Below the pieces are notes generated by a model. The model was not told the DNA's origin, did no database searches, and saw only the letters and a program-made list of their open reading frames with translations. DNA of 62,278 nt, counting the filler, from Hausera hauseri (lineage: Eukaryota): NCBI GenBank assembly GCA_046269625.1. It is 12 parts of 12 records of this genome, joined end to end, with 100 filler letters (N's around TTAATTAATTAA, not from the genome) between each part and the next. Parts side by side here need not be neighbours in the genome. Positions count along the whole stretch, not along the records: positions 18,634 to 23,302 come from JBJURY010482354.1; 11 more parts are not named here. One strand, given 5' to 3'. A program made the position numbers and the translations under genes. Shown piece after piece: positions 8,567-60,997 of the stretch; the first letter of the stretch is position 1; the number at the start of each line of letters is the position of its first letter.

Positions 8567-9555
8567 TTGATAAGCATAATTAAATTAGAAATTTCATTTT
8601 TTTGAACACCACACAACTTCTGAAAAATAACAACACTATTTGTTGGCGGAATATCATAAATATCTAATTTCAATATGGGAATTTTCAGACCACAGTAAAA
8701 CGTTTGTTGTGTATTTGGTTCAAAAACGTAGTTTCTTAAACATTCACATTTTCTACAGTGTCCATTAAAGTAGAAAAATACGTACATGTACGCTAGAAAT
8801 GGCAGTAACAATGCAATCACCATGGCATTTAAAATCAATACGGAATTGTGGACGGTTATACATTGGTTTGGAACAAATCCTTTATATGAATGCCATAATT
8901 TTATTACAATACCGAGATTTCTACCGACAGATTCTCTTCCCAGATCTTGTTGAATGAACAACGAATAATTGCAGATTAAATAATTATTTTCCACGGCATA
9001 TTTAATCAAACGTTTCGCGGATTTCAAGAAAGACAAAGTTGGAAAGGTATTTGCACAATTGCCAATGTATGCGATGGCTATTGTTTCTACGTTCCATGCT
9101 AGCACGGCAGCCGACTGATGATTCCAACCTCTTCCTTCATAAATATTTCCTTTTCCGTCTATTAGAAAATTATAAGGAATATCATAAAATGATGGTGTTG
9201 CACCACTACCATCAAATAGATTTCGTTGAATTTGTCTTAAAACACCAATACAAGAATTCTTAATCATACATCCGTAATTTTCTTCCGAGGAAATGACGAC
9301 CTTCTTTGGTTTCATCGAAAACGGAGTCAAATAACCGATAGGTGGTGCTCCATACCATTGATCCTTCGAATTTATGTCTAATATCCCTGCCTTACCATCG
9401 AACGTTGATCCATCAAATATGCTGCAAAAGGAAAAACTAACGATTTTGAAATGTTTATTGCTGTCATGTACCAGCCAAAAGTCTGTCAATCCAGTGAATA
9501 TTTTAGTTGCCCAATTGAAATTCGTTCCATTAATAACAATTTTAATTTCATTTGA
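8567..9555 (-). CDS. PGRP: Peptidoglycan-recognition protein (amidase_2 fold), non-catalytic, with C-terminal TM helix; 3' end truncated by spacer, 5' exons unresolved
   Basis: Signature FYDIPYNFLIDGKGNIYEGRGW, plus INSKDQWYGAPP, CIGVLRQIQ, IAIAYIGN and LIKYAVENNYLICNYSL. Hydrophobic LILNAMVIALLLPFLAYMYVFFYF follows the domain. Confidence 0.88.
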
Positions 9556-10189
9556 AAATCAATCCATTCAATCTTATTTGATGTTAATTAATTATCTAGC
9601 TGCTTAGCAGCTTATATTGTTTTTGCAGCTTATATTCAATTGAATTGATATGGCTATATAATTCTGTCTTAATTGTGGCCAACTAGTAATCAAGGCCTTT
9701 AAATTTCTTTCAGCTAATTCCGAATTGAAACATGTCGGCGTTAAATTACTTTTAAACATGTCGAATGAACTTTAACTCCGTTATTTTTGTAACAACAACG
9801 GTTCTGAACGAATTTTCGTAAAAGTTCATTAAATTTTCAAATTTATGTTTTCATGATAAAAACGCCATGATTGTGAAATATGATTCATCTGTACTGGTTT
9901 CTGATTAATTTCGGCTGATTGTAATTAATTTCAACTGAATTTGATGACTGATTAAATTTGTGGACTTTTTATTTTCGATTTTGTAATTTTAGCCAAAGTA
10001 CAATAATCCAAAATTTTCGCATAATTTTCTAAATTTGGATTCTCATGTCTTTTTACAATTTGTTTCTTCATTAACAGTCTGTAAAATAAACCTGTATATA
10101 AAGAAATGTTCAAAGCAAATGTTAAAAGCATCCCGCATTTATTTACACATTAGGCATATCGAACCGAAGTCATCCGATGTCATTCAATT

Positions 10190-14362: not shown

Positions 14363-17085
14363 CTTGATTTGAATTTATACGGTTCGTCACCATTATTTTG
14401 TATAGGAGATAAGATATCGCCGTCACTATTTTATTTTTTGATATACTTGTTCCCATCATTCGCGAGAGTATATCTCTTTCTTGTATCTGGTTTATTCTAT
14501 AATCCGTAGGAATATCTGCGAATAGCTCACCAATTTTGCTATTTCGTTCCTGATAGTCTACATCAGTGAGTCCGGTATTTGCAAGTTTGTATTGAACTCA
14601 ACGAATCCATTGTGCATCCTTGCTAACACGGTTTGCAGTAATGTTGCCAATAATATGTTGCCTACATCATGCTCATCTTCAATTGATGCTCATCTTCATC
14701 GACAGTTTCATCATCTCTCGCTTTTCTGCCTTTTAATTGATAAAGTTTTGTCGTTCCTTTGGGTCCATCACGGTTCCTTTTATGTATCTGAATTTGTTCT
14801 GATATAGGAATATTTGTTTCGACTCCTATCTGTTGGGCTTCATGATGTGGTTCAGCTTCTTGTATTTCTTTCTATCTAACATCAGTAATAATTTCACCTA
14901 TTATTTTTTGCTCAGTTTGTCTGAAAGCAGGATTGTATCTAATTGCCCACATACCTACTTCGTATACAGGGTGCGCGGGATAAATTGGCAAACCTTGACC
15001 AAATAATTGAAAAAAGTCAATTCCTGAAAATATTTATTTTAAACTTAAAATATGTGTTTGTTAGCTTGTTTTGCAATACTTTACTCAAAGAAATCACTGT
15101 CATGATCTATGACTGCCTCAATTCCGGTCCAGAATCTTTTGCAGGTCTTCACAATTGCCTCCCTCTTTATGTGTGTCATCGCCTCTATCACCTTGGTCTT
15201 CAGTGATTCCATGTTGTTGTGAGGAATATTATTGACACCTCTTTGACAAACGCCCTACACGCAATAGTCGAGAGAGTTGCAGTCGGGAGAGCTGGATGGT
15301 CAAATTTCTTTCTCCCAAAATTCAGGCAGGTTGTCCAGCAGCCATTTTTGAGTTTTCTTGGCAGGGTGCGGAGGTGCGCCATCTTGTTAGCGACAAAATG
15401 TCTCCCAGCAGCAACCTGCCTCATCCAAGGCTCCACCACTGTCCTCATCACATCACTGTAGGCCTCTGTATTCACCTTTTGCCCCTTCTCAAAGAAGTGA
15501 GAGGGCATCATATCCCCTGAATTGGAGATGACGCCAAGGACCATGATGGTGGATGGAAACTTTGCCACCATGACTATCTCTACTCCCTAGGGGTCAGAAT
15601 ATAGCCACCTGTTGTTTCGTCTGTTTACCCTTTGATCCTGAGAGAAGTTTTTCTCATCGGAAAAGAAGATGAGCTCTCCGTGAGTTCGAGGGTGTTTGAT
15701 CCTAGCTAACTGAAACTAGGCCTTCTCAAGCCGCCCTTTCTTGGTATAAGCATTCATGAATTGGCCTCACTTAAGCGCATATGATCGGCAGTGAATACCC
15801 CCTCCACTACTCGTTTAATATTGGAGTCAGAAACTTGTAACTACTTCGCGGTAGAACTCATGGACCTGCCTGGATCGCTGTTGATCATGTCTTTCACCCT
15901 CTTCATGAAGTCATTGTCTTTTGTGTCGCTGAGCCTTTTGTGAGGCTTTGTGACGGAGGATACGTTTTAGGCAACTTTCCAGCTTTTATCTCAGAGTTGT
16001 ACCTTTTCTATTCATTGTACATTGTCCTCAGGAGGATGTTATTGAACTTTGAGATCTCTTTGGTAGTCCTACCGGTGCAAAGTCCGTGTATGATGGTTGC
16101 TCTAACATCTTGCTCCTTGCTCATTTTAAAATAAATCTGTCTAAAACATATAAGTAGATTAGAGAATCAGATTTCAAGTAATTCGGTTTGGAGGTTTAGA
16201 TTACATGTCGTCTTACATATACAACAATTCAAACATATTGCCTATTTATCCCGCACACCCTGTATGGTTTCATAATCTAGCAACATTCGTCCGTAAAAAC
16301 GTAAATTTAATTCTCCTCGAGGTTGGATTACATCGTTGATTTTATGTTTCAATACATCTATCGAATCCAACGACTTCGCTTTTAGAACATGGAAATTTTG
16401 GTTATATTGTTGGAGAGTAACCACCTCTTCGGGGATTTCTCCAACCGTTCTGACTCTATCAGCGTATTGGTCGATTGCATATCGTACAATGTTTTGATAT
16501 GGACTCTTGGCAGAAGCATATAATAACAACAGATCCAATAAATTAGCAATCTGTTGATGGCTAAGTGTAGATGGCAATAACATTAAAATGTGTTATCTGA
16601 ATTGAGTGCCATCAATTAGTTCTTGATTGGCATAGCTCGATATTTTTCGAACTATTTCTATGCCATCTTGATCCAAATCTACAGGTGAAGCCTCCATTTG
16701 TGGTGGTGGTTCCTTCAATTTCTTTCTTCTTATCCTTTTTACCTTCTCGCTTGACTCACTCTTCTCACTTCCGGAAGGTGAGTCTGACAAGGGGTCTTTA
16801 AACCTTCTTTTTGTATCAAAGGTTTATCTTTTCTTTTAACCTTTCTAACTTCAGTATTCGACTCTGATGCGGGGGTCTATTTAGGCCTGCCTACTGGGGC
16901 AATCGAACTATCATTATTCATTTTGTGCCTTTTTCCCCAAATTTGATGTTTTAATTCAGCTACTTTATCCTCATCGTCTATCGTATTTGTTTTGCTTTCT
17001 TTCAATTTGCCTCTCACCTTTTGTTGAAGCTTTTCTAATGTACATTCAGGCTCTGTATCTGTAGTTTTGTGTTCATTATCTGTAT
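14363..17085 (-). pseudogene. Decayed orphan coding region continuing 3' of gag (interrupted by the maT element)
   Basis: Consecutive minus-strand ORFs at 16877-17098, 16593-16790 and 16242-16583, and readable sequence beyond the insertion (YEVGMWAIRYNPAFRQTEQKIIGE). No protease or RT motif in ~1.4 kb. Confidence 0.5.
14967..16262 (-). mobile_element. DD37D (maT) Tc1/mariner transposon, decayed, inserted into the retroelement coding region
   Basis: TIRs CAGGGTGCGCGGGATAAATTGGCAA / CAGGGTGTGCGGGATAAATAGGCAA, TA duplication at 14965-66 and 16263-64. Motifs IFFSDEKNF, MVLGVISNSG and QDGAPPH...SPDCNSLDY, with 37 residues between D2 and D3. Contains stops and frameshifts. Confidence 0.92.
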
Positions 17086-17974
17086 CAGATATTACCAATT
17101 ATATCGGTATTCTTCTTTTTTGAACTTGGCTGTGCCTGATTAGGACAAGAACGGGTCATGCGCCCGTATTTCTGACAGACAAAACATAATGACTGCCCAT
17201 TCTGATTAACTACTGGTCCCCTCGTTGCAGATTTTTTGAGGTTAGTTTTGAAAAGTAACCTTCTTCTGTTGTTGTTCCGACTGATTCTGGAACTTATCAA
17301 ATGGCTTTTGTTGAAAATGTTTCACGTTTCTTAATCATTTCTGGGAGGCTTCTTTGTATTTTCCAGCCGTTCATAAGTAACTCAAATTTTCCTGGCTTTA
17401 CTGACAGCTTCTTTGTAAGTGTCAGGATCAGCAACGATAATATAATTTTGTATTTCTCTGGTAACTCCGTAACAGAACTCAGCCAGGAGAGTATATTCCC
17501 TTATGTCTTCACTTTCATAGGCCCTCTGAGCCTACTTCTGAAGGGCATATGCATATTCTTGCATAGTTTCACCTTTTCTGATGTCTCCTGTTAAATTCTC
17601 CAATTCGACCCATTCCTGATGGGTCTACTAAGAGCCTTTCCTCCAGACACTCTTTAAGGCTATCCCATTCAGCTTTTTTCTGCTCCTCTACTTGTGTATA
17701 AATACTAAGTGCTACTCCTTTAAGATGAAGTGGAAGGCGTTTTATTCTAAGCTCGTCTGCCCATCCGAAGCTTTCTGAGTATATGTGATACTCACTATAG
17801 TCCTGATCTAGTTTGCCTCCGAATTTATCCATCAGCAAAACCATTGTGTCATTGTTGCCTAAGCTGTCACCTAGTCCTGAACTAGATATCTGGGGACTGT
17901 CTCCTATTTGGAAATCTTCTGTCTCAGAATCGGATGGGCGTCTTGCCGAAACCGTGTTTTCAACAGTTATTCAT
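17085..17974 (-). pseudogene. gag: Ty3/Gypsy gag (capsid plus zinc knuckle), frameshifted
   Basis: DKFGGKLDQD...FGWADELRIKRLPLHLKGVALSIY capsid-like segment and CFVCQKYGRMTRSCP knuckle (H to R). Begins ~40 nt after the PBS. Confidence 0.8.
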
Positions 17975-18633: not shown

Positions 18634-19032
18634 GCAATCATTACGCCGTCCTAGTATATAAATGCATGTTCAAGTCCAAACAACATTTTATTCATCATTC
18701 GAGTGAAAATAGCAAGTCCGCTTGTAATACCGAATGACATGACATTAAATTCGTATACCCTATCATGAGTTTTAAATGCCGTCTTGTAGCAGTTTTTACT
18801 TGCCAGTATCCGGATTGCAAGACTAAAGTGGTAACCCATTTTGCTCCTGAGAGTATATATAGAGCTTATTTCACGAATGGTAATGGAAAAGTGCCTTTCA
18901 TCATCATGGCACTCAGAGTTCTACAACTGATACAAAATCGATGTTTTGTCGAACCTTTCTTTTTAACAATGAGTACAGGTAAATACCAAGATCTATAGCT
19001 ATTATCGGCACACGGCCTGATGATACCGTATT
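18634..19032 (-). pseudogene. Ty3/Gypsy reverse transcriptase fragment
   Basis: GIIRP...SWYLPVLIVKKKGSTKHRFC and KTAFKTHDRVYEFNVMSFG...IY*D. Clear homolog of the RT at 51313-52152. Confidence 0.88.
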
Positions 19033-19059
19033 TAAATATAAGTCTTCTTTGTCGTTTGC

Positions 19060-19900
19060 GATTATGTTAGACAATATGCTGTTCAACATCCATTTTCCAT
19101 ATACTTTCTTCGTATGCCTTTAGGAATTTACCGAAAGGTGTTACAAATCGCAGTTAAAATTTTACACGAAAAACTTGTCAACATGAATATCTCATATCAA
19201 CATATGATTGTTAGAATTACTGCTATGATTAGTTGTACTAGAAAATAATTGGCCAAAAATCCAGAGGCGGCTTATCCAAAAATTAAAAATCTTCCCCAGA
19301 TTTTATATAAGATTTTTGTGGTTAAACTTTGATAGTTGTTAATGCCAAGTAACGGTTCCAATTTTGCTTGATAGCGAATATCCTCTAACACAGTATACAT
19401 AGCTCGATTCAGTTCGTGCGTATGCTGACGTGGAAAAGTAATGGATTGTCTAAATGCTTCAACTTCTTTTTGTTTATAAATACCTTTAGTTGTGGTATCT
19501 TGAAATTTGTTATCAGTTATTCCTTTTACCAAGTTAGTTCCCGTCAATTTACTGGGTTGTGTTGTTATGTCTCAGTTTGGTAAGTTTACCCAGTCAATCT
19601 GAACACTGGCTCTCCTAAACTGGCCTTGTATTCCTTTTAGATCATTGGTTGAGTTGAGTTTGCCAAAAAAATTCTAGTATATGCACTGCCAGTCTCGGCG
19701 TACTCTGGTATAAAACAGGAATTTGTAGTATATAACTCTTTTCTACTACATTAATTGGGACGTCTCTTTTCTGGCATTTGTAAGTCAACAAAACTTCACC
19801 AGTGACTCAACCGCGAATATCCCTCTTCGGAATTAGTGGCAACGCTAACTCAGTATTGGCATATATCAAGGCTATTTTAGTTCTCATGATGTCCATGTCG
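19060..19900 (-). pseudogene. Chuvirus/gB-like (class III) envelope glycoprotein, C-terminal part, copy 1
   Basis: DIMRTKIALIYAN...GEVLLTYKC, KGIYKQKEVEAFRQSITFPRQ and KIWGRFLIFG*AASGFL. Collinear with copy 2 at 53452-54893. Confidence 0.75.
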
Positions 19901-22744
19901 AATTCGTTTGATTCATTTCCTTGATTAGCGTCAAGTGATGTCACATTTTGCACTACGTCTTCGATTCTGGTATCATTATTGCTTGAAGATGGTCTCGACT
20001 GGTAATAATCTTCTTTCTCAAATAATTTAGGCCAATTTATTTCTTGAAGCAGTTTCTTACAAACTTTTCTGGCTAAGCTAATGGCTTTATTATGCTTGTT
20101 TTCTCGCCATGGGTTTATTTTAATCTCTAAGTATAGGAACACTTTTCTTAACTTTTCTGTGCTATTCTCTACCATAATTTTCTCGGTCACCACTTCCTCA
20201 GTCAAGGTGCATTTAGACAATTTTAAACATGAATGTTTCATTGTTCTAGCTGCATTATATGTAACTTTCTTTTACTGGTCTGTTCCATCGCAGAGGAGAC
20301 CGGATTAATTTGCGATACGTATTACGTTTTCCATAAGCTTAGTGAGTTCATCACTATCCCAATTGATGGTAGGTATCGACATTTGCCTTAACTTTCTGAT
20401 TAAATCTCCGTTAAAACGTCTCCTCGTACATTGCTTGGTCTTTTAACTGGACGTTTTTGCTTTGTTGTAAGTGGCACAACTTACCAGATTTTTATCATAC
20501 CATTCTTTATCTTCCTCAGTTTTGCAAGTATTCGAAATACATTGCAGCATTTTGAACTCCTATGATTTGTTCTACACATTTCTCGGCTTTGTCTTTATGT
20601 ATAGCTTCTTCTTACGTTTCTTCATCTGCGATTACGGTCACTATATGTTTTGTTTCACTGGGGATAATTTCAACATCTATTAACGTCCAATGTCCTGTGT
20701 CTGAAGTAGAGTCGATAGTTTACTTCACTTTTAGACCGTTGTTTATTAGCCGATGTTTTACATTTATAACAGGTGAATCTGTTGTGCACTCGCATTCCTT
20801 TTCATCCATCCATTCAGACAACACTTTTACTTTTAGTGTTACATCAGACTTAGCCTTTAAGATCTTAGCATATTTTTATTAATAGTTTTGGCACAGCAGT
20901 ATAAATTGTGTTTCCGTTAGATCATTTAGTTAAAGTAGGAACGAGTTGTTTTAATCTATTTCCGTGATGTTTACATTAATTAATTCAAGTAAATCATTCT
21001 CAGTTAGCACCGGATCTAGAAGCATTTATGCACTCGATCTTCAATTCTGTGGGTAGACTCTCGCTTATTAAACGTGTGGTGGAGTTTTACCCTTGTTTTC
21101 GTCGATTATTGCATCCAAATATTCATCCCATTCTGCATCTTTTTATTGAAGTATCTGGTTGTCAAATTAGATTCTCATTTTGTGAAATATATCGTATTTC
21201 ACGTAGTCACTTTTCAATCTTAGCTTCTATACTGTTTGGAACCCGATTCCATCATAGTAATATGTTGTAACACATTTAACAACTGGCATAGTTTATCTGC
21301 TTGAATAAATCCTTTTACTTGGTAAGTAACAAATTCTGAAACAATTCACGCTGCATCTTTGCGCAAATTCTGATTTATTGGATATTTCCGGCTCGATAAA
21401 AGTATACTTTTTCAGTATATTTCAAGTTCTTTACTCAATTCATGCATTTCAGTTTTTCTTTGTACAGTAGGAATTAAAGTTTTTTGCATGCAAGGTATCT
21501 GGTTTTGCAACTGTCTCATTTTTCGTCATTTATTTCGTCTATTTCTGCTAATATTGATGTTAACTTGTCCATTTCCTTCAAAATTCTGGAATCAGCGTCT
21601 ATTTCTTCAATTAAGTTCTTTTACAAAATTAGATTCTTCAAAGGTAATAAGATGGTTATTCATTATTTTCATTAATTTGCCGTGCCATATTTGATCCCAT
21701 CCTAGTATCTCATTAGATGAGTTGCGGAAAAATTTGAACACATTCAATATGGAGTTATTATCTAGGAACATATGCCCAATATTTTCAGCTCTTGTATTAT
21801 TATTTCCTTTATGGGTTTGTTGTCAGATACCGGATTCCTTCCAAACGGACATCTACAATTTTTGGATAAAGGCCATGAGTCATACTTTTTTCGACTGAAA
21901 ATTCGTTTTTCAATCATTCACTTGACAACGACACTTCTTCATTTTTGCTCATAAATTTCAGTCGCCGGAATTCATTCAAGCGTGCTAGGATATTAGCTTC
22001 TGCTCTCATAGCATAAATCAAATGGTTTTCCTCTCAGATGGGTAACCATAACATGCTTTATCATGTTCATCAATCTCTCCAAATTACGTTTTTCTCAGTT
22101 TTCGGTTTTAACCCACAACTCTAGGGTATTAGTTCCACTTTTATCTACACGTTTAATTCATATTTCCATTTTTCTAACAACTCTCTTGGTATTTCTTCAG
22201 GTTTATTAAAATTTAGTCCTTCGTCAAATATTCCTTCATTATGTAACATCAATTTCTTATACATTCTTTTCGCGAATTACTGTTTCTTCCTGGAAATATA
22301 TACTTGTTGGGCCATTCTTTAAGTTTTTCTGCATTATGTCGTATCTCTTCATTCATTGGAGTGTTTCTTATATCTCTGAGTTCATAGGCATTTTTCCATG
22401 AGTTTCTGATTTTCTACATATTTTTATCGAATTTTTTAGTTGGTGTCGTCTCATCCTCACTTCGAGAAAATAAGCATATGTAATTTATACCGCTTGGTTT
22501 CTCAACCATAATCGGCATATCTAGACTGGGTCCTATGTTATTTTCTACAATCTTTTCGGTCTCTTGGGTTTTCTCTGAATTTTCTTTAGTCAATAGGAAC
22601 TGTCCTTAGGTTCCCGTTTAATTGATGGGTTTCTACCTCTATTTTTCGCAATTTTAAGTATTACTCCTTTCCAGCTACATCGGCTTCAATAAACTTTTTC
22701 ACGTTTTCAACTATACATGATCCGACAAATAATTTTAAGACTGT

Positions 22745-23302
22745 GCCTATAAAACGAGACAGAAACAAATTTTCTCACCTTCATTATTTTATTTATTCAA
22801 AGTAATCTCATCTTACTTAACTTCAATTTCAACTTGTGGAACAAAAGAATCTCGCGGAGCAAAATTAGGTGAATATGACGAATAATTGAGCACACAGACT
22901 TGATTTCGGGCCAAAAATTGGTGAAAAATAAGTGAATTACGAGATGACGCGTTATTGTGCTACAGCGACCAATTTTCTGGATTTTGATATTCATAACAAA
23001 TACGACGGATTCTTGTCATCAAACACGTCAAAACCTCGAGATAATAGTCGCTAGTAACTATTTAACGAGTGGTCAAAAACGAATTCTTTGTGGATAATTC
23101 CTTTGTTAGCAAAGAATATGATGAGCATTGTCTTGATTTTTAAAGCATTTTTCGATTTTTTCTTGCTGGTGGTGAATTTTTCGATTTCCATTCCTCACTT
23201 TGACGCTTCGTTTTTGGATCATATTAGAAGCACCGTGTTTCATAACCCGTAACAATTGAATTCAAGAAGTTTGTATCATTTTAGGCGGCTGCAGTAACGT
23301 CT
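22745..23302 (-). mobile_element. Mariner transposase remnant (catalytic part)
   Basis: FLNSIVTGYETRCF*YDPKTKRQSEEWKS and MLIIFFANKGIIHKEF; heavily decayed. Confidence 0.75.
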
Positions 23303-24699: not shown

Positions 24700-27610
24700 C
24701 TCAACGAAGTGTCTCTGTGCGGCTTGTATAGTTTTGTCTGTTGGAGTGCTGTCCAGCTCAGTCAGCTCCAATAATGATCTGATGGAAGTGCCAAATAATG
24801 CTTCTGCAGGTGAGCAGCCTGTAGAAGTCGATGGTGTGATCCGCCAGCCAAGCAGAACGTACGGAAGGAGTGTAGTTTAACTGCGATTGGACTCAGCGAG
24901 AATTTTGAGAGACGTTTTCATTGTTCGGTAAAAGCGTTCGAGGAGGCCGTTCAATTGGGGATGATATGGTATTATGTGAATGCGGTTAATTTCCAATCGA
25001 TTGACAAGAGCTTTAAACAGGTTGGATTCGAACTGTGGACCTTGGTCTGAAATGATGTGGCGAGGTGATCCAAACTTCCTGATCCACGTGCGGATGAAAA
25101 CGTCTGCGATGGTTTCTGTGTTGGTGCTCCGAAGTGGGACGGCTTCTGGCCATCGCGAGGAACGGTCCACCATTGTGAGGATGAAATGATGACTGTTGTT
25201 TAAGATTAATGGGCCCACAAGGTTAATGTGAACAGATTCGAAACGAGACGTGCAGGAAAAATGAAATAGTAGTGGCTTTAGATGCTTAGTAACTTTGTAT
25301 TTTTGGCATGCCACACACTGCCTAACCCATGCCTGCAAGTCAGAGTGAATCGACGGCCATACTACTTGGCGTTGTAAGAGTCGAAATGTGGCCTTGGCAC
25401 TGGGATGATGCAACTAATGTACTTTGTGGAACGCTTCTTTTTGAAGCAACTCAGAAAGAATGATTTTGGGATTATTAGGTTTGGAGGTGTCGAAGGCCAC
25501 ACCGTCGATGGTTTTGCAATATTTAAAAGATTAAAGGATGTCAGGAGGTGGCTGGTTTTGTTGAAGTTTGGATTGAGAAAAAATTGGTATAAAATCAATC
25601 GAGCTGACCGATCGGGACAAAAAGTCAGCTACTAAATTGTCGACTCCGTTTAGATAATTAATTATAAAATTAAACGTTGATAAATATGATATGTGCCTCT
25701 CCTGACGTCGAGAAGGCGATTTTATGGCGAGAATTTGGAGCAAGGGATTGTAGTCCGTTTGTATTGTGAAAGTTCGTGCAGTTAACGAATGGTTGAAGAG
25801 TTTTATGGCAAGGACCATTGCAAGCAACTCTCTGTCAAAGATGGAATATCTTTGCTCTTGTGCTGTAAATTTTCAAGAAAAGAATTCCAATGGCTCATGG
25901 GATCCATTTTAACTTGATGGAGTACAGCACCTCTAGCTGTTGTGGATGCGTCGGTGGTTAAGAAAAGTTCTGCATGGGAGTCTGGATAGGCCAGGATTTC
26001 CACAAATTTTAAATTGTCCTTGAGGTGATCGAAGGCATAGACTAAATTGGCGGTCCATTGAATAGGCTGTTTCTTTTTGCCAGAGCTGAATGATGCAAAT
26101 AAAGCGGTTAGAGTGCAACAGTGCGAAACGTACTTACGAATAAAGTGCCAACTTTGAGGAAATAACGCATCTCTGTTGATGTACGTGGTAACTGTATGTT
26201 TTTGAGCTGCGTGATGCGGCCTGGCTGAGGTGAATGTCCGGAGGAACTAATAATGTCCTGGGAAGTTGACTTTATGTTGAAGAAAAGAGCATTTAGAGAA
26301 AATGATTTGCAATTTGTTTTGGTGCAAGCGCTAGACGATTAAACGTAGTTGTTCGGAGTGCTGCTTTGGGGAAGAACATGCAATTAAGATGTCATCAATA
26401 TAGGGATAGGCGAAGTGTAAACCTGAAAGAACTGTATCGATATGCCTTTGGAAGGTCTGGGAAACACTAAAGAGTCAAAAAGGCATAAGGAGGTACTCGA
26501 AAAGGCCGAAAGGTGTAATGACATCCGTTTTTGGAATGTCTGCTGGGCCACCGGAATTTGGTCACATGCTTTGTGTAGATCAATGCAGGAAAAGATGGTC
26601 GAAACATGGAGCCTGTGTAGAATATCGTTGATTAATGGTAGAGGGTAGGCATCCATTGTTGTCGTGGTGTTAAGTTGGCGGTAATTACCGCATGGACGAA
26701 AGGTGCCATCTTTTTTGCAACCACATGTAGTGGTAAAGATCAGACGGATTTGGATCTTCTAATTATGCCTGATCGTTCCAGTGCGAGAAAATTAGCCTTC
26801 ACTGCCCGTCTACGACGAGGCGATAGTGGACAGATCTTTTGACGTATTGGTCTTTGATGTGCTGTTACTATGTGATGAAAGGTGGATTGATGTGGTGCAA
26901 ATGATTTGTCCTTTTTCAGCAGACGCGTGCAGGAGGACGAAATGCATTGCTGTAAATCAGAAGGCAACGATGATAAATTATCCGATGGTGTCGATGCATC
27001 GTGACTGGATGCAGATGAGATATGAGTTATAGACGAGGTATTGTGACTGGGTGGTATTTGGTGCAGGATGTTCATGTTGTAGATAGTGTTGGCAGCTGTG
27101 TTATTAGTAATAAATGCCACGCAGTTGGCAATATCGCATTTGTCACCGTAATAAAAATTTCTATATAATAAATTATTATAAAAATAATTCAAATCGGTCG
27201 TCGTTTACTTCACTGTTGACTCACTGGACGCGATAGCGGGTGTGGTCATCAAAATGCTGTAATTTGATTAAGATTATTTACGCTCTTTAAGGAACATTGT
27301 TTGCAATCTACTAGTAAATTGTAGTGGGACAGAAAATCTGAACCAAATATAGGTGTGCGTACATTAGCTATTGTAAATTTCCATGTGAAAGTGTTTGTGA
27401 AGTGCGGGAGAGTGAATGTTAATGTGGTAACTCCAAAAATTTGTAAAGATTCACCGGACGCAGTGAACAGTTGCTTTTGTGAAGTGTAATTGTGTTGTAT
27501 GTGTTGTGTTGGTGGCAATAGAAAGATTGCTGCGGTGGTGTCTATAAGAAAGTTTATTTTTTGCTTTGTTGGAGTGATGACTGCTGCTTCCAACGTGAAA
27601 ACAGCAAAGG
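24700..27610 (-). mobile_element. pol: Ty3/Gypsy pol remnant: protease-RT-RNase H-integrase
   Basis: PR FLIDTTAA (27249-27593). RT KKDGTFRPCGNYRQLN, DAYPLP, IDLHKA. RH LTTDAS, TDYNPL, NLVADFLSR. IN HPSAKAT...CVACQ, HINLVGPL, SDQGPQFES, YHPQLNGLLER. Confidence 0.93.
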
Positions 27611-28838: not shown

Positions 28839-31497
28839 TCAGAGGACATCTTTTTCATCAATATTCACAACTTCACCATACGATAAAAATTTGTAATGGA
28901 ATTTGGAATTTGGACATGAAAGCAGTGACGGATCGGAATCCAATTTTGATAGATCGAAATCTGTGGAATCGTTGAGAATTGTAGTCATCGTCTTCTTCGT
29001 GTTATCATTCGTATTTTCCGGACTGCCATAATTGTCATAATCATCTTCATGGATCCTTGCAATAGTCAATTCGAAATCACTGATATTCAACAAACGCAAC
29101 AACGGATAGTGTCGGTGCATTTTGTCCAGCTGAATCACATCCTGATGGTATTTCTCTGAACAGCAATAAAGTGCTCCCGGATCAATCGGATGGGCTTCAG
29201 AATTGAACACGTATCCTCCTGCCTCGATGACACACTCACCACCGGCAATCGTATCAATGACATGATAATGATTCAGACTTGTTGCCGATGTTCCGGCATG
29301 GATAAAATTGTCTTCATCAAACAATAAATACAGATATTTTGTCGTTTCTGCGAGGAAAAATGATTCCATTCGGTTTTCCAGTTGGTGACTGCGAACATCA
29401 TACACCTGAAATTGGAACTTCGTAGCATTTCGGTTACTAATGTAAATTGCCGCCATTTCTACCATAGCAACATGAAATTTATGACATCTAAACACATCCA
29501 TATTTTGTCGACGGAACAATGCCAAACAATTTCAACGATTCGGTTGCTAATGTAATCTCTTCTAGGAAATTCCCTTAGCAACCGAATACAAGTGTACAAA
29601 CGATTCAGGATTATGAATTGTTTAAATTTATCATTTAATACACTATAACTGCGGAAATTTAAATTTGACGGCACTTGTACATTATCCCCCACAGTCAGCT
29701 TTATCATTCCCTTTTATCGTACCGATGAGTGGGAGAATTATGTACAAGAGCCGTAAAATCGAAATTGCAAATTTCCATCACCACGATCATTGGAATGACA
29801 AATTTAAACAAGCGATTCGATTTGTAACTCATTTACGTACCGTGGCAAATCCGCAACTCGTCCGGGCAACCGTTTTGATCGAATGTAAAATGTCGACGCC
29901 CATCTGAAGAACGGCAGGATCTTTCGTAGCCCGATAAACGTACATGACTGACTCGATCAATTCTGGTCGTAAAGGATACGAATTCCGTTGCTGCATCGGT
30001 TCGGCTTTCGGGACACTGTAGAATTCGGGAGTAAATCCGAATTGTTTCCAGACCTGATGGTAATTGTGCAGTGATCGTAAAGCGCCGTCGATATCACCAA
30101 CGAGTGTCTAATCAAATAACAACACAAACACACACAGACACACAATTCATACCAGCAAACCCGGCCAAAATGCCTCCAGACTCTGGAAAACCGGCATAGT
30201 GACAGTAGCTTTGTCCATGTTCACCCAGAAATGCCAATCATCGTGACGCATGTGTTTGTTGATGCGCAACAGATATTCTATTCATTACGTATGATAAATA
30301 ATGACAATGTCCACAGAAACAGCACAATACCGTCGAACATTTTACGTAATTCCGGTTTCCGGAATAACACAGATCCCTTGACGAGATATTCGAAATAAGA
30401 GTCCACACCGTCTCCAATGCCACTGTCTGTAGCTGTCCATTTGCCTTTCATGACATCGATGTGGTTTCCTACAAGACCGGCTTCAGTACGGTGATTCCAC
30501 ATGGATCGAAGAGCGCGCATTGCTACTTCTTCAAAAATGAGGTCACCTGAATGCGGAATACCAAAGAAAAGAACATTAGATTCATTAAATATAACAGTTA
30601 AATATCTTTAATTTAACCACATGAAATGTGATCAAATAAAGTATTAAATCTTAATTAGCTGCATATACCAGAAATTTTCCGTAACGATAAAATGAATTAA
30701 AACAAAGGCAAATCTACACAAATGATTTGTTACAACAAATTAGCACAACATCAACGTATTCCATGAAATTGCACAGACAAAAAATAACAAACCTGTCAAT
30801 CGAGACAAAGCCCCAAATTCAACAATCAAAGTTGTCACACCAGCCGTACAAGTAATCGTCGTCTCACCAATCGGCACACCCGATTGCAAATTCACAGTTC
30901 CATACGGCATACCCGTTGTCGTATTGAATGCTGGTAACAATCGACGTGCAAATGACTCACTCAACCGCAACAGAGGACCACTGCATGGCCAGCCCGGCTC
31001 CAACGGCAATCCGCCACGACGGGACAGCAAATGAGCACTCAACAAACCTCCGACAACTAACAAATCATTATTCAACAATACTAAACGGACAATTAACCTC
31101 GAATGTTTGTCTCAAAAACGGAAACGTTGCTATTTTTCATCGGATTTAATTGAGTCACCAACAAATTAACAACTCGACGGAATTCCGTTTTATTACCCAT
31201 AATAACAAGTGTATCCAATGCGTCAATTAACGACAATGAGAAACTGCCCCATGTGTTCTGTCCATCACACGTCAACGGACGTAACTCATCCAGTGGATAC
31301 GCATATTTCATGTAGCTGTCGTAGGCAAATTGAAACATTTCCTTCACTTCCCATCTGATAAAATATTAATAAAATTCAAGTAAAAATGGATTGATTAACG
31401 CTAATTGTTTCAAATTATGTTGATGGGTTTCGGATATAACTGATATAAATCCCGCAATGTTAATGATATAGAAAAGAAGAAATTTCTTTCTCCACAT
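28839..31497 (-). CDS. EDEM2: ER degradation-enhancing alpha-mannosidase-like protein 2 (GH47); 7 exons, introns at 31355-31399, 31057-31097, 30547-30792, 30278-30330, 30108-30152, 29406-29840
   Basis: Signal peptide. Motifs [94 protein letters not shown]2-type C-terminus (LLSCP...) with no PA domain. GT-AG introns preserve frame. Confidence 0.93.
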
Positions 31498-31821
31498 TTG
31501 AACTTCATCAAAACTGTATATTAAAACAAGTAAATATAATCTATTCTAATTTCGGTATAATTTATTATCTTAACTACAGTGTTCGGTACTTTTCCATTAT
31601 CCCTCTGGAAGAGCAATGTGAGTAAGAGAACTAGAAGATTCCATATCACTTTATATTTCAAATATATAATTGACATTATTCAAACAAATTATCACATTTT
31701 CTAACTTCCCTCTCCCGCCGTNNNNNNNNNNNNNNNNNNNNNNNNNNNNNNNNNNNNNNNNNNNNTTAATTAATTAANNNNNNNNNNNNNNNNNNNNNNN
31801 NNNNNNNNNNNNNNNNNNNNN

Positions 31822-32810
31822 TGTAGCATCGAATATGTGTTGGCTCCGAACAGAAATTTAATGGGTTTCCAAAATTCGTTTACTATATACACGGAAATAC
31901 TGTGCACAACATTGTGAGACAACGATAAATATATGGGCCCGATGATATTTACGTGAGCAGTTTTGCCCGGTGTTTCGTATGTGTCCGAATCCTGCCCAAT
32001 AGAAGTCAATAGTTGTTTACGGTCTCCGCCAACATATAGGGTTAGATCGATTAAAATATTGATTCGTGAAATGCTTTGTAGAGACGTGGTTTGTGTTTAG
32101 CAAGAATGGGCCGAGCGCTGCCGGTTTGACCGAATCCTCATTTCTTAAAACCCAGATTCCGTGCCAATAGTTTATCAAGGGGAAAATATGTAACAGTATC
32201 ATGTAGTGTAAACAAAATACTACCATCAGAGTTTAATTCAAATGTCTTGAGAGCCAATTTAGCTACAACCTTCATGGTTGCGCACAATTCTGTTTCCTTT
32301 TCCGCAAGAAAATTAGTTCCTGTTGTATGAGAGTAAAAGAATGATTCAGTCTTTTGCCAGTTCACTGTAATCTCGGTGGTTTTAATGGTGTTCAATTTTC
32401 CACTAATTATACTATGTCCACCGAGCTTCATACATTTCGAACGCACATTGACAGATTGAAAACTCCATGTCTGAGCGGCGGCTAGTGATTTAAATTGCAA
32501 TTTAATCGGATGTTTGTGTTTTAGCACCAATCGATTGTTTAAATGAAAAATATAAACAGGGAAATATTGCCGTTGGTAATTGCGAACATAGAATGTTCCA
32601 TTAGAGTCTCGGACTAACTGCAAACGCTTAGATGCAGTATATTGATTTATTAGGATATAGTATATTCCATTGTTCTTATATATTGTTATTGGTGAAAATG
32701 TAAACGTGAATTCCACGAAAGCCACTTCCCAGGCTCCCTGGATTAGTCCAGCGGTTGGTCCAACGCCATGGTAAACCGTTCAGCGGTATGGTTATTGTTG
32801 TTGTCATGTT
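31822..32810 (-). pseudogene. Polinton/adintovirus minor capsid (penton)-like protein, frameshifted
   Basis: N-terminal NNHTAERFTMALDQPLD/IQGAWEVAFVEF and C-terminal PIYLSLSHNVVHSISVYIVNEFWKPIKF fit polinton penton patterns. Directly follows the integrase. Confidence 0.65.
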
Positions 32811-32849
32811 CTGATAATCTGTTACTATCAAGTATTAAATAAGTGCTCA

Positions 32850-33921
32850 TCACTCAATCTGCGATGCAAAAATCCAACTCGGTGTAGTACATCCGTGCCA
32901 CTCGAGGAGATATTGTTTATTCGAACCTTTGCCGCATAAACGTAGAATTTCCTGAATACGATACACATCGGGTTTCTCGGGCAGTATCTGCAGTTCCTGT
33001 TCGTAGAATTTACCGCGTATTTCCTCACCGTTTTCATCCTCTAAAACGTACATGACAGGTGTCTGTTTTGTGTTGATTGCCGAAATGCGGAAAACCTTGT
33101 CGCTCCAGTTCTGATTGAAATTCTTAATGAATGGCATCGTACTTATTTTCGAAATACGTACATAATCACCAATTTTAAATTTTGGGAGTTCAGTTGGTCG
33201 TCCTCGTCGGTTTTGATAAAGCCACATGTCCAAACCATCGATTAGGTCAACCGACAGTAATCCGTTGAATGATTGTATGTGTCGAATGATTTTATGTATG
33301 AATGATATCCGGCAGTACATCTACCCAGCGTTTGTTGCCTTGCTTCGTAAAGAATTTGTTTAGGCGACCTGGCAATGTTCGACTAAATCGTTCAACGAAT
33401 GCAGCCTTGTATTGGGAAAACACGGAGTAGTAGTTTACGCCGAACCGTTTCAAGACCGCTGCAACGTGCGCGTTGTACAATTTTTTGTACAAATCCGTTT
33501 GTAAATGCTACGGTTGTTGTTGCTGTTGCATCAGTGTCTGAACAGCGTCGAAAATCTCTTTACCGAATTTAGATTTCACGGCAATTGCACGTGCAAAACG
33601 ACTAAACACATCAACGCATGTCAGCACGTACTGATGCCTATTGTTGATGCTGGTGTAAAGAATTACTTCCATCAGATCCGTTTGCCGTACATTATTTACA
33701 CCGGCAGCACGGTATGCACGAGTTGGAAACTGCCTTCTCATCGGTTTGTTTAGTCTGTATGCTAACTGTTTTCCGAGCCAACGTTGGGTCTGTTGCCGAG
33801 TCTGTTTGACAGTCTTCGCCAGTTGGTCGACGCTAGTAAACCCCTCGGGATGATGCGGTTAGAACCAAACGTCGCTCATCGGTGTTGTTTTCGTCGTCGA
33901 TGGTGCTGGTTTTGCTTGCAT
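32850..33921 (-). pseudogene. Polinton-type retroviral-like integrase with C-terminal chromodomain
   Basis: WLGKQLAYRLNKPMRRQF, QTDLME, YVLTCVDVFSRFA, KAAFVERFSRTL, PKFKIGDYVRISK, NWSDKVF, GKFYEQEL and chromodomain YRIQEIL...QYLLEWHG...SWI. Confidence 0.92.
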
Positions 33922-33989
33922 TACAACAATTAGAACGAAACGTAAATGAAAGATTCGGTAAACTGGGGCAAAATGATGAAAACCATGCA

Positions 33990-36900
33990 TTTATATCGCC
34001 GAATCACCATATACTTACCGTCACTGTTTATACTATGCTGCTTCTGTAGAACCAATGAGTCCATCCAGTAATGACGTGACAATCGGTAGAATTTCACCAA
34101 GGAATCCGCCGTCTTACTGGTACATTACCTCTCCTTTCAGTCGTTTACTACGGGCGTTTGCAAGGCCAATTAGTCCTTTTAGATACCTTAGTAAATTCCG
34201 CTTTTTACTTTCGCCTTGAAGCATCCGATTTTGATTGTGATCGCGCTGCTGTACAGAAAATGGTTCTGCAGGAAGTTGGACGTGTCCAGTAGTCCATCTG
34301 CCATCATTTGCCGGAGCAGCTAATATTGATTGATGTTTTTCGGCTCAAGGAAAAAGCTGTCTGTGTCATCGGCAACGACACTGATCTCATATCAGCCGCC
34401 GCCAAAGATTTGCCGGTAACGTGTCAAGTCGCGATATTGAAACTTGTACATTTGCATCTTGCTCAGGTTTAATACCACTTGTCCGATATAGCTTGGATGT
34501 CCAGTACGACTTCTTCTCTGTTTAGAAGCACGGCGACTAATCCATCGGCAATATGCCTTGATCGTCTGGACTGAGCCTTGCTGGTGTACGTAACCAGTCG
34601 TTTTGCGTTGTTGCACAGGCGTACATTAAGCCGCTTCTTCAGATTCTTCACTGTTTTCCCGTACAGTAAATTGTTTTTGAGCTTGTAATAGTTCTTTTCG
34701 AACTTTGTATAAGCTGCGGCTCGTTTCTCCGAATTTCCATCAATGTACGTCTTGAATATCGGCGCCTGATTGAAGCGGATTGCACGATGCAGCTGTGTGA
34801 CGGGTACACCGAGCTGCATGTAAAACTGCAGTAGACGCCAATGAACTACGTAATTCGATTTGGGTTCATGTGTCATGAGCAGTTTCTTTACTTTTGAGAA
34901 GGGGGAGACATTGGCTGATTGGTGACACGGGTAATTCGCCCAAAGCGTCATACAGCTGATCGGGTACCACGAGATCAACTTCCGTCAGGTAGCCGATTGA
35001 GCTGCTTCCTGTCGTGTTTGCTGCTGGCAGACTGTTTTTAGACAATCCATCCAAATGAACCGTACAGCAAGGGTTGCGAAAGTGCCCAGCCGTACAGGTT
35101 ACTAATGTCAATATACAGGTGGTGGTAGTATCATTACCACTGGCTACGTGATGTTTGTTGACAAACGTCATGTCGCCACGAATGCCAAGATCAAACAAGC
35201 GATATATTTCCGGGTCTTGCAGCAGCTCAATGTCCCGATCAAGTGACATTAGAGCGGATGCCCAACTCATCCCCGATATGGAGTAAAAATTAAGCGGCTC
35301 CAGCCTATCGTTCTCCAATGCTTTAACCCGAAACGCTTGGAATACGTCGGCTAACAAGTACACGTCCAGTTTCAGGTACTGGAGCATGTACTCAAACAGA
35401 TTGCGGCAGCCCAGCTCTGTCCAAAATCCCTCTGCTTTCTGGTACTCGTCCTCTGTAATTCCGGCCCATTGTGGTGTCAGTTGCTCTGTTGTCTGCAGTT
35501 GTCATACGATACAGCAAAGTCATATGGGAATATGCCTTTGCTGCGTGCAATATGCCCGGGTAACTGCGTCAGTGTCAGCGGCACATCTGGCAATGCATTT
35601 ACGAGCTTTGCTAGACACTCATTGAGGAACTGCAATGAGTCACGAAATCGTAACCGTAACCGATTTATGCGTGTTGATAGAGACAGGTACTTCTCCATCG
35701 TTGTTGGGATTATGGATAGCTCCCAATGCGGAAATCCGTTTATGGCTCATTTTAAAACATAGTGACAGTCATAACTCCTGAAGTTATGAAATATCACCGG
35801 CAGGAATGTCCGCATCTGTCTTGCCAAATTATATGAATTGCATGCTGCTCTCAAATATTGACCGGTAAAATGATCATGACCCGGTACGAGCCGTTCCAGT
35901 GCATTGAACGGTAATATTTTGTGGCACAGCTAACATTCATCTGTGGCTTCAAACATCAATGGTTCATATTTATATGTCCACATCAAGGGTTTATTGCTAT
36001 TCCTACTGTACCAGGATGCAACTTCCGATTCTACTATTGTTTCCAACTGCTTTAGGAAATCTCGTGCGCAATTTCAGCCATGAAAAACGTAATATTGCGG
36101 TTTGCCTTCAGCTTTTATTGGGATAACCAGCATGTCAACAGAAATTGGAATATGTTTTTGATCATATACGTTGTGCCGTGGTAGGATTGCCTCAATATCA
36201 GCATATACAACGTATGGCAAACTTTTAGTTTTCAACCAGTCACTAAACCTCAGTTCCTTTTTTACTGGCATGACATACATTTTGTCTGCACAACGTCACA
36301 TGCTTTTCCCATGTCGTTTGTGACCTGAAGCAATGCAGACACACAGGACACCGTTTGTATCGTATTTGGTTTTTGATAAATTAATCATGATCCATATTCA
36401 GCAATCTATCCAAATTTGTCACGGCCACGTAATGATACTTTTCCACCCGTTCCTACAGTAACACATTTACTGGGCATCCGTTTGAATTTCGATTTCTATA
36501 GATTATATTCACATGGGGATTCCTATAGAATTCTTCATCTACTGATATTTCAGCTATTGAATTGTACCGGAAAACGTTGATTTACAGCGTCGGATTAAGC
36601 CGTTCAAACGTATGAATAGATTTTAGTTTCATTGGCATCCAGTTTTCATCGAAATCCCATTCGGAAAAATATAGCCGATACTGATATGGACGCTTTGCAT
36701 GTTTTCTGTCCACTTTGTCATATTTTAATACGGCCAAAATACTGTAAAGAAAACAGTATTCATTGTTAATATTTTTTACATTCACTACCGCCACAGACTG
36801 ATTCAGAGCTGCAGGTGTCGGTATGAATGATCGCCCGGACAGGTAAATTATACCACTCGACTTTGTTATGATAAAGCCAAGAGTGACAATTTTTATAATT

Positions 36901-48720: not shown

Positions 48721-48799
48721 TATGGCGTTCGCCGACATGGACCATTGCACAATTACATATAAAACGGATTTCAACAGAATTTTTATACCGCACATTTCC

Positions 48800-50819: not shown

Positions 50820-52935
50820 GCGCGCTGGCGGTCTATTATTTCCTCAAGTCAACTTTTCTTCATTACAGTGATTGCGCTTGTTTTAGTCTTTAATCTTGAT
50901 AGGGCATCTGCGTCTACATGTTTGTTCCCTGGCTTATACTAAAATTCAGTATTGTATCTTGACATTTCCTCGATCCATCTATTGAGTCTGCTTGTCGGGT
51001 TATTTGCTCGGCCTTTTAAGGTCGTAACGGCCTTGTGATCAGTGACAATTATAATTTCCTGCCAGTATACGTAAACGTTGAAATGTCGAAGTGCTTCTTT
51101 TACAGCTAGCGTTTCCAATTCGGTAACGGAAAAATTTTTCTAGGCCTTCTTTAAGGAACGTCCTCTATAAGCAATCTGATGTTCTAACTCTTCATCTTCT
51201 CTTTTCTGCACTAATTTGTATCCAATGCCTTCTTTACTGACGTCTGTCTTGATTATGAAGGGTAAGTTAAAGTTTGGATACCGTAAAACAGCTTCACTTG
51301 TTAATATCTTCTTCATCTAGTCGAAGGCTTTCTGTTCGATATCTGTACATTTCCGTTTAATTCCTTTTTAAGTAGGCGGTATAGAAGTGCATGAATTTTT
51401 GAATTATCTGGTACATAGGTTGCGTAATATCCGCAGAGTCCTAGCCAGTGCCTCAACTCTTTCTGGTTTTGTGGTTCAATGCAATCTGATATTTTGTTTA
51501 ATAACGATTTATCTTGTTTCAATCCTCCTTCTCCAACTATATGGGTAAGGTAGGATACTGAGTTTTGAGCCCATTTGCATTTCTTTCGATTTAGCTTCAA
51601 TTCAGCTTGTTCTAATCTCATCAATGTGTGTTCAATATCCTTTAAGTGTTCCTCTTCAGTTCTTGATGCTATCATTAGGTCATCTAAGCACGCAAAAGCA
51701 TGATCCAATCCCATTAACATTTTGTTCATCATTCTCTTAAATATGGTTGGCCCGGTAGTAGTACCGAATGACATGACGTTAAACTTATAAACACCATCGC
51801 GTGTTTTGAATGCTGTCTTATAACGGTCTTAGTCCTCAATTACCACTTGCCAATATCCGGATTGTAAATCCAGGGTGGTAAACCATTTTGCTCGTGAGAG
51901 CCTGTCTAAGGCCTCTTTTCCTGACGGTAATGGAAAGGAGTCCTTCATCGTAAGATTATTTAAGGCTCTGTAATCAACACAAAATCTATGTTTTGTGGTA
52001 CCTTTCGTCTTAACCATGAGGATTGGTGAATACCAAGATCTATAACTGGGCCTAATTATATCGGCCTTGAGCATTCGTTCGACTTCTTTTGTTATCTCGG
52101 GCCTTAATGAATGTGGCGGAGGATACCATTTTGGCATCTTCTGGTCTTCCAAATCTATTTCCTTGTTCGATTCCGGCTTTTTTTGAGTGGAATAGTCAGT
52201 TTTAACGCTCTCGCTCTACCAATATCTTCGTCCTTAGCAATAATCGATTTATATCGGCATAATCGTTCATAGAATTGACAATAAGACTAAGGTGAAAACT
52301 TAGTCTGTGCATTATTAGCTATTCTGATAGGCACTCGACAGGAGTATACTCTTGTTAATATACTGCTGAGTAATATATTCGGATCCAGCGTATCCTTTGG
52401 TTAAAAATATACCGGTTAATCGTCATCTTTCTGTATCTAGGGCGCAAATTATCATTTCTGTTCTCGGTGGGATGTCTTCATCTACGGGTATCCATGCCTC
52501 TCCAATTTTTCTTTCTTTGGCGTTTTTATGCCTTTCTTCGGCTTGATTTTTATTAACTTCCATGCTTGTAAGTCAATTGCTATATTTGGTAATCTTTTCA
52601 ATAGATCACATCCTAGAACTACGTCGTCGGTTAATTGCTCCATAACTGAAAATTCATGATGGAAAAACTGTCCAACTATTTGAACTTTGGGTTCCATTTA
52701 AACATTGGTTTTGACATTTAGCCAAATTCCCCTGTACTTTCTGAATCTTTCGTATATAGTGGGTATAATTGTCCTCTCAGTGTTTGAGTTATTGAATCAT
52801 TTTTGATGTAAGACATCTCGGATCCTGTATCGATTAAGGCGTAAACTTCCCAATCTTCAATAATGATTTTGGCGAAGGGTCTTCCTTCTATTACTGTTCC
52901 GAAACAGTTCGATGTACCCTTTGAGCGTTTCACTG
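50820..52935 (-). pseudogene. pol: Ty3/Gypsy pol: aspartic protease, RT, RNase H (integrase beyond contig end)
   Basis: PR RPFAKIIIEDWEVYALIDTGSEMSYI and VVLGCDLL. RT HRFCVDYRALN, DSFPLP, FTTLDLQSGYWQV, KTAFKT, ACLDD. RH YPNFNLPFIIKTDVS, ELETLAV, TDHKA, HVDADALSR. Confidence 0.93.
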
Positions 52936-53451
52936 CCGATATTTTATGTCCATTGATTAGGATTTCGGGGGAGGATACTATATTCTCCTACAACTGTCTT
53001 CATTTTTCGTTTGGATATAACATGTTGTTTTCTATGTGCAATTCTGCCGTTTCGTGTGTACTAACTAATGGTTTTCGATTGTTAGTGTGTAGTTCAGTAT
53101 TCTGGAAGGTTTTAGCCCTTGGATTGTCCCAAACCGTTTATCTGATTTCTATATTTCGAGGTTCTCTCGGAGAATACAACATCTTGGAATCATCTGTGGA
53201 TTGTCGGTAACACATTTTCCGTGGGATTCCATAAGGTTTTGTTCCTTCATAAGGGTCTTCTACGTTAAATTTGTTTTTTTATAGATTTCAGTCTGATATG
53301 AACTCATTGATAATTTGTCACAGTCTTTATAGACCGGAGCGGTAGGGGGTAGCATATGCAATGGTGCTTTAATGACAGAGTACGTCTAATGTCTGTTTAT
53401 TCCTGATAATACTTCTCTTCCCTTAGGTTCGTCATCATCTGAATTATTTCT

Positions 53452-54893
53452 TTACGTATTAGACTTTGTAAATTTCCGCTTCCGCAAGAATATAGACCTT
53501 CCTGTTCGTTTACGATTATAATAACCGACATGACGCTCTACGTCAGATTTCCATCTGTTTTCTTTGTATGTCTTTAAGAATTTTACAAAGGGCGTTATGA
53601 TCGTCGTCAATATTTTACAGAAAAATCCAGTCAATGTAAATATTTCGTACCCATTTATTACTGCTTGGATGACTGCTTTAATCATTTGTATCAGGAAGTA
53701 TATGGCTAAAAATCCGGATGCGGCTTGTCCGAAAATTAAAAATCTTCTCCAAATTTTGTAGAGTATATCTGTGGTTACTCGCTGATAATGATTTACGCCA
53801 AGTAAAGATTCCAATTTAGCCTGATATCGTGTATCATCTACTACAGAAGCCATGGCTCGGTTTAATTCGTGTGTTCATTGTCGCGGAAAAGCGAGGAATT
53901 TTCTAAAGACTTCGATTTCCTTGGGCCTGTATATGCCTTTCGACGAGATGTCTTGAAATATATCGTCCATAATTCCTTTCGCAAGGTTTGTTCCTGTTAA
54001 TTTAGTTGGGCAGCAGTGATACCTCCATTTGGCAAACTAACTCAGTCTGTTTCACTGCATCTAAACATTGGTTCTCCTAAACTTGCCTTACAATTTTTAA
54101 GGATTGTTGTTTGGGTCGCGTTATCTAGTAATACTCTCGTCAGTGGTATAGCTAACCTAGGAGTATTCTGATAGATAACAGGGAGTTCTTGGATGCAACG
54201 TTTTTCTTCCACGTTCATGGGTACATCTCTCTTTTCGCATTCATAAGTTAACAGTATTTTGCCCATAACCCGACCGAAAATTCCCTCTCTCATAGGAATT
54301 ATTGGAGAAGCCCGTTCTGGGTTGGCGTATATAAGGGCCAACTTCATCCTCATGATCTCGGTATCCAATTTGCAGTCGCTAGTTATTATTTTGTGATATA
54401 ATTCAGCTATTCCGACGTACCCTTTGTAGTAGAAATAATCGTCTCTGTTTTTCAGATAATCCTCAATTCGGATATCCTGCGTTTCTAGTTTGTAAGTCTT
54501 TGCATTTATTTCTGCTTCTGCGACGAAAAACGCCTCATAGTTAGTAGCAAACATCACTACTTCACAACGAGAAATCATTTCTTTCTTAATAAATTTTAGT
54601 CTATGCTTATCAGAGATTAATATAGTGGGCGTAGGATGTTATGATACGTCTTCGCGTGTCCTTGAGTTGGTATCAGATTTATCCGCATATCGCTTTCCGG
54701 TAGTTTCATGAAACTTTAATTACTTAATTTTGATAAAATTACAGCTTCTTCCAGAGGGAGGTTCCCATATTATAACAGAACTTCTAAAAGCACAGGTTCC
54801 ATCTTGAAAATGACATTTTTGATTCTCGGTATATAGTTTAGTGACACTATGGAACATTACTTTCTGTGCTCGCATCTCTGATTCATAGAAATC
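53452..54893 (-). pseudogene. Chuvirus/gB-like (class III) envelope glycoprotein, copy 2; N-terminus cut by contig end
   Basis: Cys pattern CHFQDGTC...IIWEPP...CNF, CEVVMFATN, GRVMGKILLTYEC, CIQELPVIY, PLTRVL, GIYRPKEIEVFRKFLAFPRQ. Membrane-proximal IWRRFLIFGQAASGFLAIYFLIQMIKAVIQAVINGYEI matches the recalled chuvirus G pattern W.KF..FG..SAG......IK..I...I.GY. Confidence 0.78.
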
Positions 54894-60907: not shown

Positions 60908-60997
60908 TACACACTTGCTTGAATGTCAGTACTGTTGCAAACACTCAGTAGAAACAGGAACCCTGCCTCAATAATTAATTGCAATAGATACTATATA

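Follow-up and report, generated by a model that had tools for sequence, protein, structure and literature searches.

Decayed copies of an envelope-bearing Ty3/gypsy retroelement family, probably of the Burro/GYPSM1 kind, with env ahead of pol

Two contigs of the analyzed DNA carry decayed retroelement copies in which a fusion glycoprotein precedes a Ty3/gypsy reverse transcriptase (RT). With a probability of roughly 0.88, both copies are dead insertions of a single env-bearing Ty3/gypsy LTR retroelement family of the Burro/GYPSM1 (GAG-ENV-POL) type, which replicated separately under selection and then decayed. The finding is a real, decayed family of an already published kind, and it leaves knowledge of gene order unchanged; the env-before-pol layout is not new, because it has been published for Burro/GYPSM1 (PMC6431247) and for GAG-ENV-POL errantiviruses (PMC13524379). 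What it adds is a divergent family within a known class and a direct measure of purifying selection on env together with RT, which agrees with the idea that the envelope was in use in these elements.

When functional, the element would have carried a class III fusion glycoprotein between gag and protease-RT-RNase H-integrase, an ORF structure that is seen in relatives. The whole was probably one long ORF, which the element's own protease would have cut, and the envelope may have mediated spread from cell to cell. Two lineages would have replicated apart from each other while, as dN/dS shows, env and RT were under purifying selection. Each copy would then have decayed, and copy 1 would have lost 1.4 kb with the linker and protease as well as the front part of env.

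Two copies with the glycoprotein ahead of RT

The window, that is, the whole stretch of DNA analyzed (62,278 nucleotides), consists of 12 AT-rich eukaryotic contigs with N-linkers between them. Copy 1 (18634-19906) is found at one end of contig 18634-23302, and copy 2 (51668-54372) lies on contig 50820-54893, both on the minus strand. In each copy a class III (chuvirus/gB-like, PF24664) glycoprotein is located upstream of a Ty3/gypsy RT, and the two copies, on their separate contigs, are 68-70% identical. They are joined by two blastn blocks, one for env (19035-19904 versus 53489-54370, 67.6% over 887 columns, E 1.6e-79) and one for RT (18634-19000 versus 51668-52047, 69.7% over 380, E 8.9e-45). 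An earlier note had recognized a second copy on another contig with the same glycoprotein-then-RT order, which these blocks and the Pfam matches bear out; the glycoprotein and RT motifs that it quoted do lie where it had placed them, all on the minus strand. Its estimate that about 1.4 kb of copy 2, the linker and protease, is missing from copy 1 also holds: between 19036 and 19031 the diagonal switches from an env offset of 34454 to an RT offset of 33035, a shift of 1,419 nt, and it is the linker, protease, and spacer of copy 2 that are absent. No gag, LTR, or integrase was found on either copy's contig, both of which are 4-5 kb long and cut by their ends.

The env of copy 2 occupies 53455..54893 (minus strand), covers PF24664 profile positions about 198-605 (Pfam, E 1.3e-18 and 5.1e-20), and is broken, its 5' part being cut by the contig end. 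The segment that copy 1 lacks (52070..53489, minus strand) comprises the end of the env tail, the linker, a retropepsin, and the protease-RT spacer. Pfam matched neither a protease nor a dUTPase in copy 2; the identity of the protease rests on tblastn to that of a relative, P0001 (E 3.9e-7), and the protease-RT spacer resembles P0001 at 1194-1319. RT and RNase H follow at 50885..52069 (minus strand), also broken, with Pfam matches to RVT_1 (E 3.1e-30) and RT_RNaseH, and the contig ends before integrase. Alignment of copy 2 to the polyproteins P0002 and P0008 continues past the stop that ends the env frame, which makes a continuous env-pol ORF the likely original state of this copy.

In copy 1, blastn, Pfam, and the codon alignment delimit the C-terminal part of env, with membrane anchor and basic tail, as a pseudogene at 19036..19906 (minus strand; PF24664, Pfam E 1e-15). 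It has 6 stops in 282 aligned codons, one of them at 19069 just ahead of the basic tail, and the frame shifts near 19688, 19597, and 19147. The N-terminal part of RT (18634..19030, minus strand) is broken by 2 stops and further indels and cut by the contig end, and its RVT_1 match falls below the curated cutoff. Between the two lies the env-tail/RT junction (19031..19036, minus strand), which is in frame at the place where the 1,419 nt are absent; no stop occurs across 19066-18869. The glycoprotein had been described as running straight into RT, and this is so locally, at the in-frame junction, but the stops and frameshifts of copy 1 leave no read-through. At the second break (19900..19912, minus strand) env similarity ends while the frame stays open across, over 19810-20271. 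The front of the copy 1 env has been lost, because similarity to copy 2 ends near 19906. A further short similarity to copy 2 env, at about 19950-19980 on the copy 1 side, was unsupported on the diagonal and was rejected.

PF24664 is the Pfam family of the Monjiviricetes fusion glycoprotein. When a profile of the copy 2 env was compared with the PDB, herpesvirus gB made up 33 of the 34 matches (best E 6.9e-4). The structural model of the same env (pLDDT 85.9) matched chu-like virus glycoproteins in Foldseek with an E of 5e-9; against the PDB, gp64 and gB were its top but weak matches, with none at E <= 0.001. The PF24664 match, the gB matches, and the chu-like G fold place this glycoprotein in the HSV/gB type of ENV.

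The missing segment of copy 1

Read evidence came from the contigs of one run, X1 (share 0.58), which may be the window's own source. The family is large, because 2,181 X1 contigs match env, RT, and portions of the stretch upstream, and 1,517 of these are under 90% alike. The upstream break near 19906 is bridged with 2 differences by one X1 contig (19517-20091, depth 5.8). Support at the glycoprotein-RT junction, which the earlier note had singled out as a check, is partial: one X1 contig (18726-19051, depth 4.4) crosses it with 2 differences and no gap, but reaches only 16-18 letters into env, short of the 31-letter bar. In the microhomology check, 4 of 6 bases agree between the two ends of the absent segment as it stands in copy 2, which is not the parent of copy 1. 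The deleted form looks single-copy among the pieces listed (8 of 2,270), and we infer that both breaks are most likely single events in copy 1 or in its last reverse transcription.

That both breaks are in frame (19810-20271 and 19066-18869 being stop-free) is the only loose thread of the decay account; the chance of this is about 1 in 9. It would suit a decidedly improbable alternative, in which copy 1, either a deletion derivative that was replicated or a spliced RNA that was reverse-transcribed, keeps a single frame from its cargo across the env tail into RT and is mobilized in trans. Yet the depths of the two contigs across the breaks resemble those of the six other pieces listed (2.9-8.0), and at least four loose ends at 18988, among the 15 of 84 joints listed, leave copy 1 and run into an ordinary RT start. 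Moreover, the 6 env-first relatives have at least 509 residues between RT and the part of env that was matched, and the matching places in copy 2, which is only 70% alike, show no clear splice signals. We regard as improbable the proposal that copy 1 is a mobilized protease-less Burro-like derivative or spliced-RNA copy or, as a lesser alternative, that the host is not a flatworm. If the former were true, copy 1 would be a subgenomic form new for Burro-like elements; if the host lay outside the flatworms, the Burro cargo layout would extend to another phylum. The finding would matter more in that latter case, or if the in-frame deleted form were multi-copy or expressed. The env type and the cargo make a flatworm the probable host; searches with host genes pointed to no lineage, the phosphoesterase gene giving one match at 44% and Atlas clusters that were uninformative.

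There is only a slim chance that the assembly joined two repeat copies into a chimera at the env/RT junction of copy 1. The high repetition of the family, the short env side of the X1 junction contig, and the possibility that X1 is the window's own source would all allow for one, but that contig spans the junction without a gap, and divergence from copy 2 is about the same for the env of copy 1 as for its RT. The env-before-pol order in any case stands on copy 2 and on the relatives.

Selection, relatives, and the known class

In a comparison of 274 env and 122 RT codon pairs, with codons at breaks excluded, env had a pS of 0.716 and a pN of 0.188, giving a dN/dS of about 0.09 with dS near saturation, and a bootstrap pN/pS of 0.21-0.33. 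The dN/dS of RT was 0.12, and dN was similar in env and RT (0.216 and 0.186). Env identity by codon position was 0.77, 0.84, and 0.47, and pN equalled or exceeded pS when env was read in either wrong frame. The glycoprotein value is far from the dN/dS near 1 that the earlier note had set against its own reading. With these values for env and RT, the layout was therefore kept under selection during lineage divergence, and the copies diverged mostly as working elements, not by neutral duplication. The proposal that env-before-pol is older than the split of the copies and was spread by replication is supported by the same two values and by unbroken relatives that have this order in one ORF. It was the order that replication carried on, and not the deletion, which appears to be subsequent decay in a single copy.

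Neutral duplication predicts a dN/dS near 1, so that a chuvirus-like glycoprotein EVE integrated beside an ordinary gypsy element and then duplicated along with host DNA, as the chuvirus-like fold of the copy 2 env and the gypsy fragments often flanking such EVEs in the arthropod data of PMC10084718 might suggest, has a negligible probability: its neutral form is refuted by the measured 0.09 and by the single-ORF relatives L002 and L001, and the best sequence relatives are retroelement polyproteins.

A HMMER search with the copy 2 env returned 201 proteins (150 listed). The word-indexed search with the same env found nothing among 742 candidates, the ESM Atlas gave nothing above 0.84, and no env relative was found in viral contigs. 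PF24664 is present in all 16 of the top long matches scanned, and in 10 of the 16 a protease and/or RT comes after it in the same ORF. The closest relatives in the databases have env-PR-RT-RH-IN as one ORF. RT is also present in 7 of 152 env-set proteins, six of them env-first and one (P0091) pol-first. Compared with the nearest long database proteins, copy 2 is about 30-35% identical in env and up to 47% in RT. Three metagenome loci were examined. L002 is one ORF of 3,703 aa with zinc knuckles, env, two protease motifs, RT, and an integrase motif, in that order, and L001 is a 5'-open single ORF of 3,426 aa; a stop between the gag-side ORF and env of L003 counts against the single-ORF layout. 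Gag before env was seen only in relatives and not on the contigs of copy 1 or copy 2. The nematode ERVs studied by Sacco and colleagues reportedly have a continuous gag-env-pro-pol ORF.

The RT of copy 2 groups with P0157 and all 7 env-set rows in a clade of 9 tips, with a support of only 0.61 (FastTree, 81 RT rows, midpoint root), and the family name, where given for the 75 RT matches, is Ty3/gypsy. Names were found on 2 of the 20 relatives looked up, one a "hypothetical protein" and the other a bacterial MAG protein. P0005, an animal-type retroelement polyprotein, is labeled as a Flavobacteriaceae MAG protein in NCBI and is probably misbinned host DNA. More than one retropepsin per ORF occurs in env-pol relatives, with 6 Pfam stretches in P0153, 4 in P0009, and 2 or more in P0001; P0002 is another such case. 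Besides its retropepsins, P0153 (4,844 aa) has ankyrin and C2H2 matches. In P0001, P0005, and L001 (8405-10279), the ORF runs several hundred residues past integrase into an unassigned domain with, by eye, a likely second membrane anchor, and an accessory ORF downstream of the polyprotein in L002 (12085-13470) has a below-cutoff match to the RNase_T exonuclease (E 0.0011).

As described in PMC6431247, which cites Jurka 2007 and Grohme 2018, Burro/GYPSM1 elements are giant gypsy-like LTR retrotransposons of planarians. Their env lies in frame between gag and pol within a single ORF, with ubiquitin-like and BCL2-like domains before it, and the order continues with PR, a dUTPase-like spacer, RT, RH, and IN, in an internal region of up to 25 kb (PMC6431247). 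According to the same description, the Burro env, like the env here, is akin to mononegavirus fusion glycoproteins and stands ahead of PR-RT-RH, and Dugesia japonica is reported to have decaying fragments in which stops and frameshifts occur; the relatives found here include one ORF with gag, ubiquitin-like, Bcl-2-like, env, PR, RT, and IN. In contrast to Burro 1-4, which were compared by description, the window has fragments alone, without the giant size, the LTRs, or the MATH/BIR/ankyrin cargo, and copy 1 has two internal losses.

GAG-ENV-POL errantiviruses with an HSV/gB-type ENV are reported from Nematoda, Bryozoa, and Platyhelminthes (PMC13524379). Both copies share with them a Ty3/gypsy POL and an ENV of gB type upstream of POL. 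Intact ORFs, in contrast, are absent from both copies, each of which has stops and frameshifts; as its inclusion rule, PMC13524379 lists intact elements, whereas the copies here are pseudogenes and decayed remnants. By eye, the copy 2 env has the same domain I-II layout as the Platyhelminthes_C1a rows of that source and resembles six Schmidtea rows of its supplement 2, while being unlike the nematode and bryozoan rows shown. The main text and supplements of PMC13524379 make no mention of Bcl-2 or ubiquitin cargo. Nematode non-canonical ERVs (Sacco et al. 2022, as cited in PMC13524379) have a flipped ENV-POL order but differ from the elements here, the nematode env rows of supplement 2 being those that look unlike copy 2. 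In Anakin (BEL/Pao) and the Jingchuvirales glycoprotein EVEs, as presented in PMC10084718, the same Pfam glycoprotein family is tied to an LTR retroelement; here, however, pol is Ty3/gypsy and not BEL/Pao, and env is under selection with RT.

Cargo ahead of env and other features of the window

Upstream of env, the relatives have ubiquitin-like units (Pfam, below cutoff) and, just ahead of the env signal, a helical domain that Pfam matches to Bcl-2 in 5 of 7 members (best E 2.3e-5). For a profile of this domain and for the L003 model, Bcl-2/Bcl-xL came at or near the top in the PDB, with Foldseek E values from 4.8e-3. Bcl-2-like cargo was considered as a novelty and rejected, having been described for Burro.

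Upstream of copy 1, a decayed coding-like stretch at 19912..22700 (minus strand) may be the ubiquitin-like and Bcl-2-like cargo region of the same element, for which the evidence is weak and mixed. By eye, order and spacing fit ubiquitin-like followed by Bcl-2-like cargo, and single pairs gave a z of 5.0 in 1 of 5 and of 2.8 in 1 of 7. Profile tests for the two kinds of unit were negative, leaving the by-eye reading unconfirmed by profiles. Pfam matches in the stretch were all below cutoff; PHROGs, the PDB, the metagenome scan, and tblastx within the window gave no match, and comparison with natural polyproteins gave none besides a marginal one at iE 0.017.

On a third contig (14363-18533), a decayed gag, a ubiquitin-like unit, and the start of a Bcl-2-like domain lie at 14364..17886 (minus strand), split by a Tc1/mariner-like element at 14964-16265 with 28-nt inverted ends (14964-14991 and 16238-16265). 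This front end is 52-78% identical to the natural ORF P0113. Judged from sequence, the contig is the front end of another Burro-like subfamily, because the env of P0113 is only 26% identical to that of copy 2.

Further mariner/Tc1 transposase fragments lie at 22750-23302, 39909-40247, and 60408-61674. An unrelated decayed gypsy pol (RT, RNase H, and integrase) at 24700-27200 (minus strand) has no env that we could see, and fragments with DNA_pol_B_2 and integrase matches at 31800-37300 (minus strand) presumably derive from a decayed Polinton-like element. Host-like sequences comprise an Amidase_2 (PGRP-like) gene at 8567-9558 (minus strand), pieces of a GH47 mannosidase at 28842-30607 (minus strand), a Tudor domain with a weak Piwi match after it at 47150-49492 (plus strand), and a single-exon Mn-dependent ADP-ribose/CDP-alcohol diphosphatase at 57085-58044 (plus strand).
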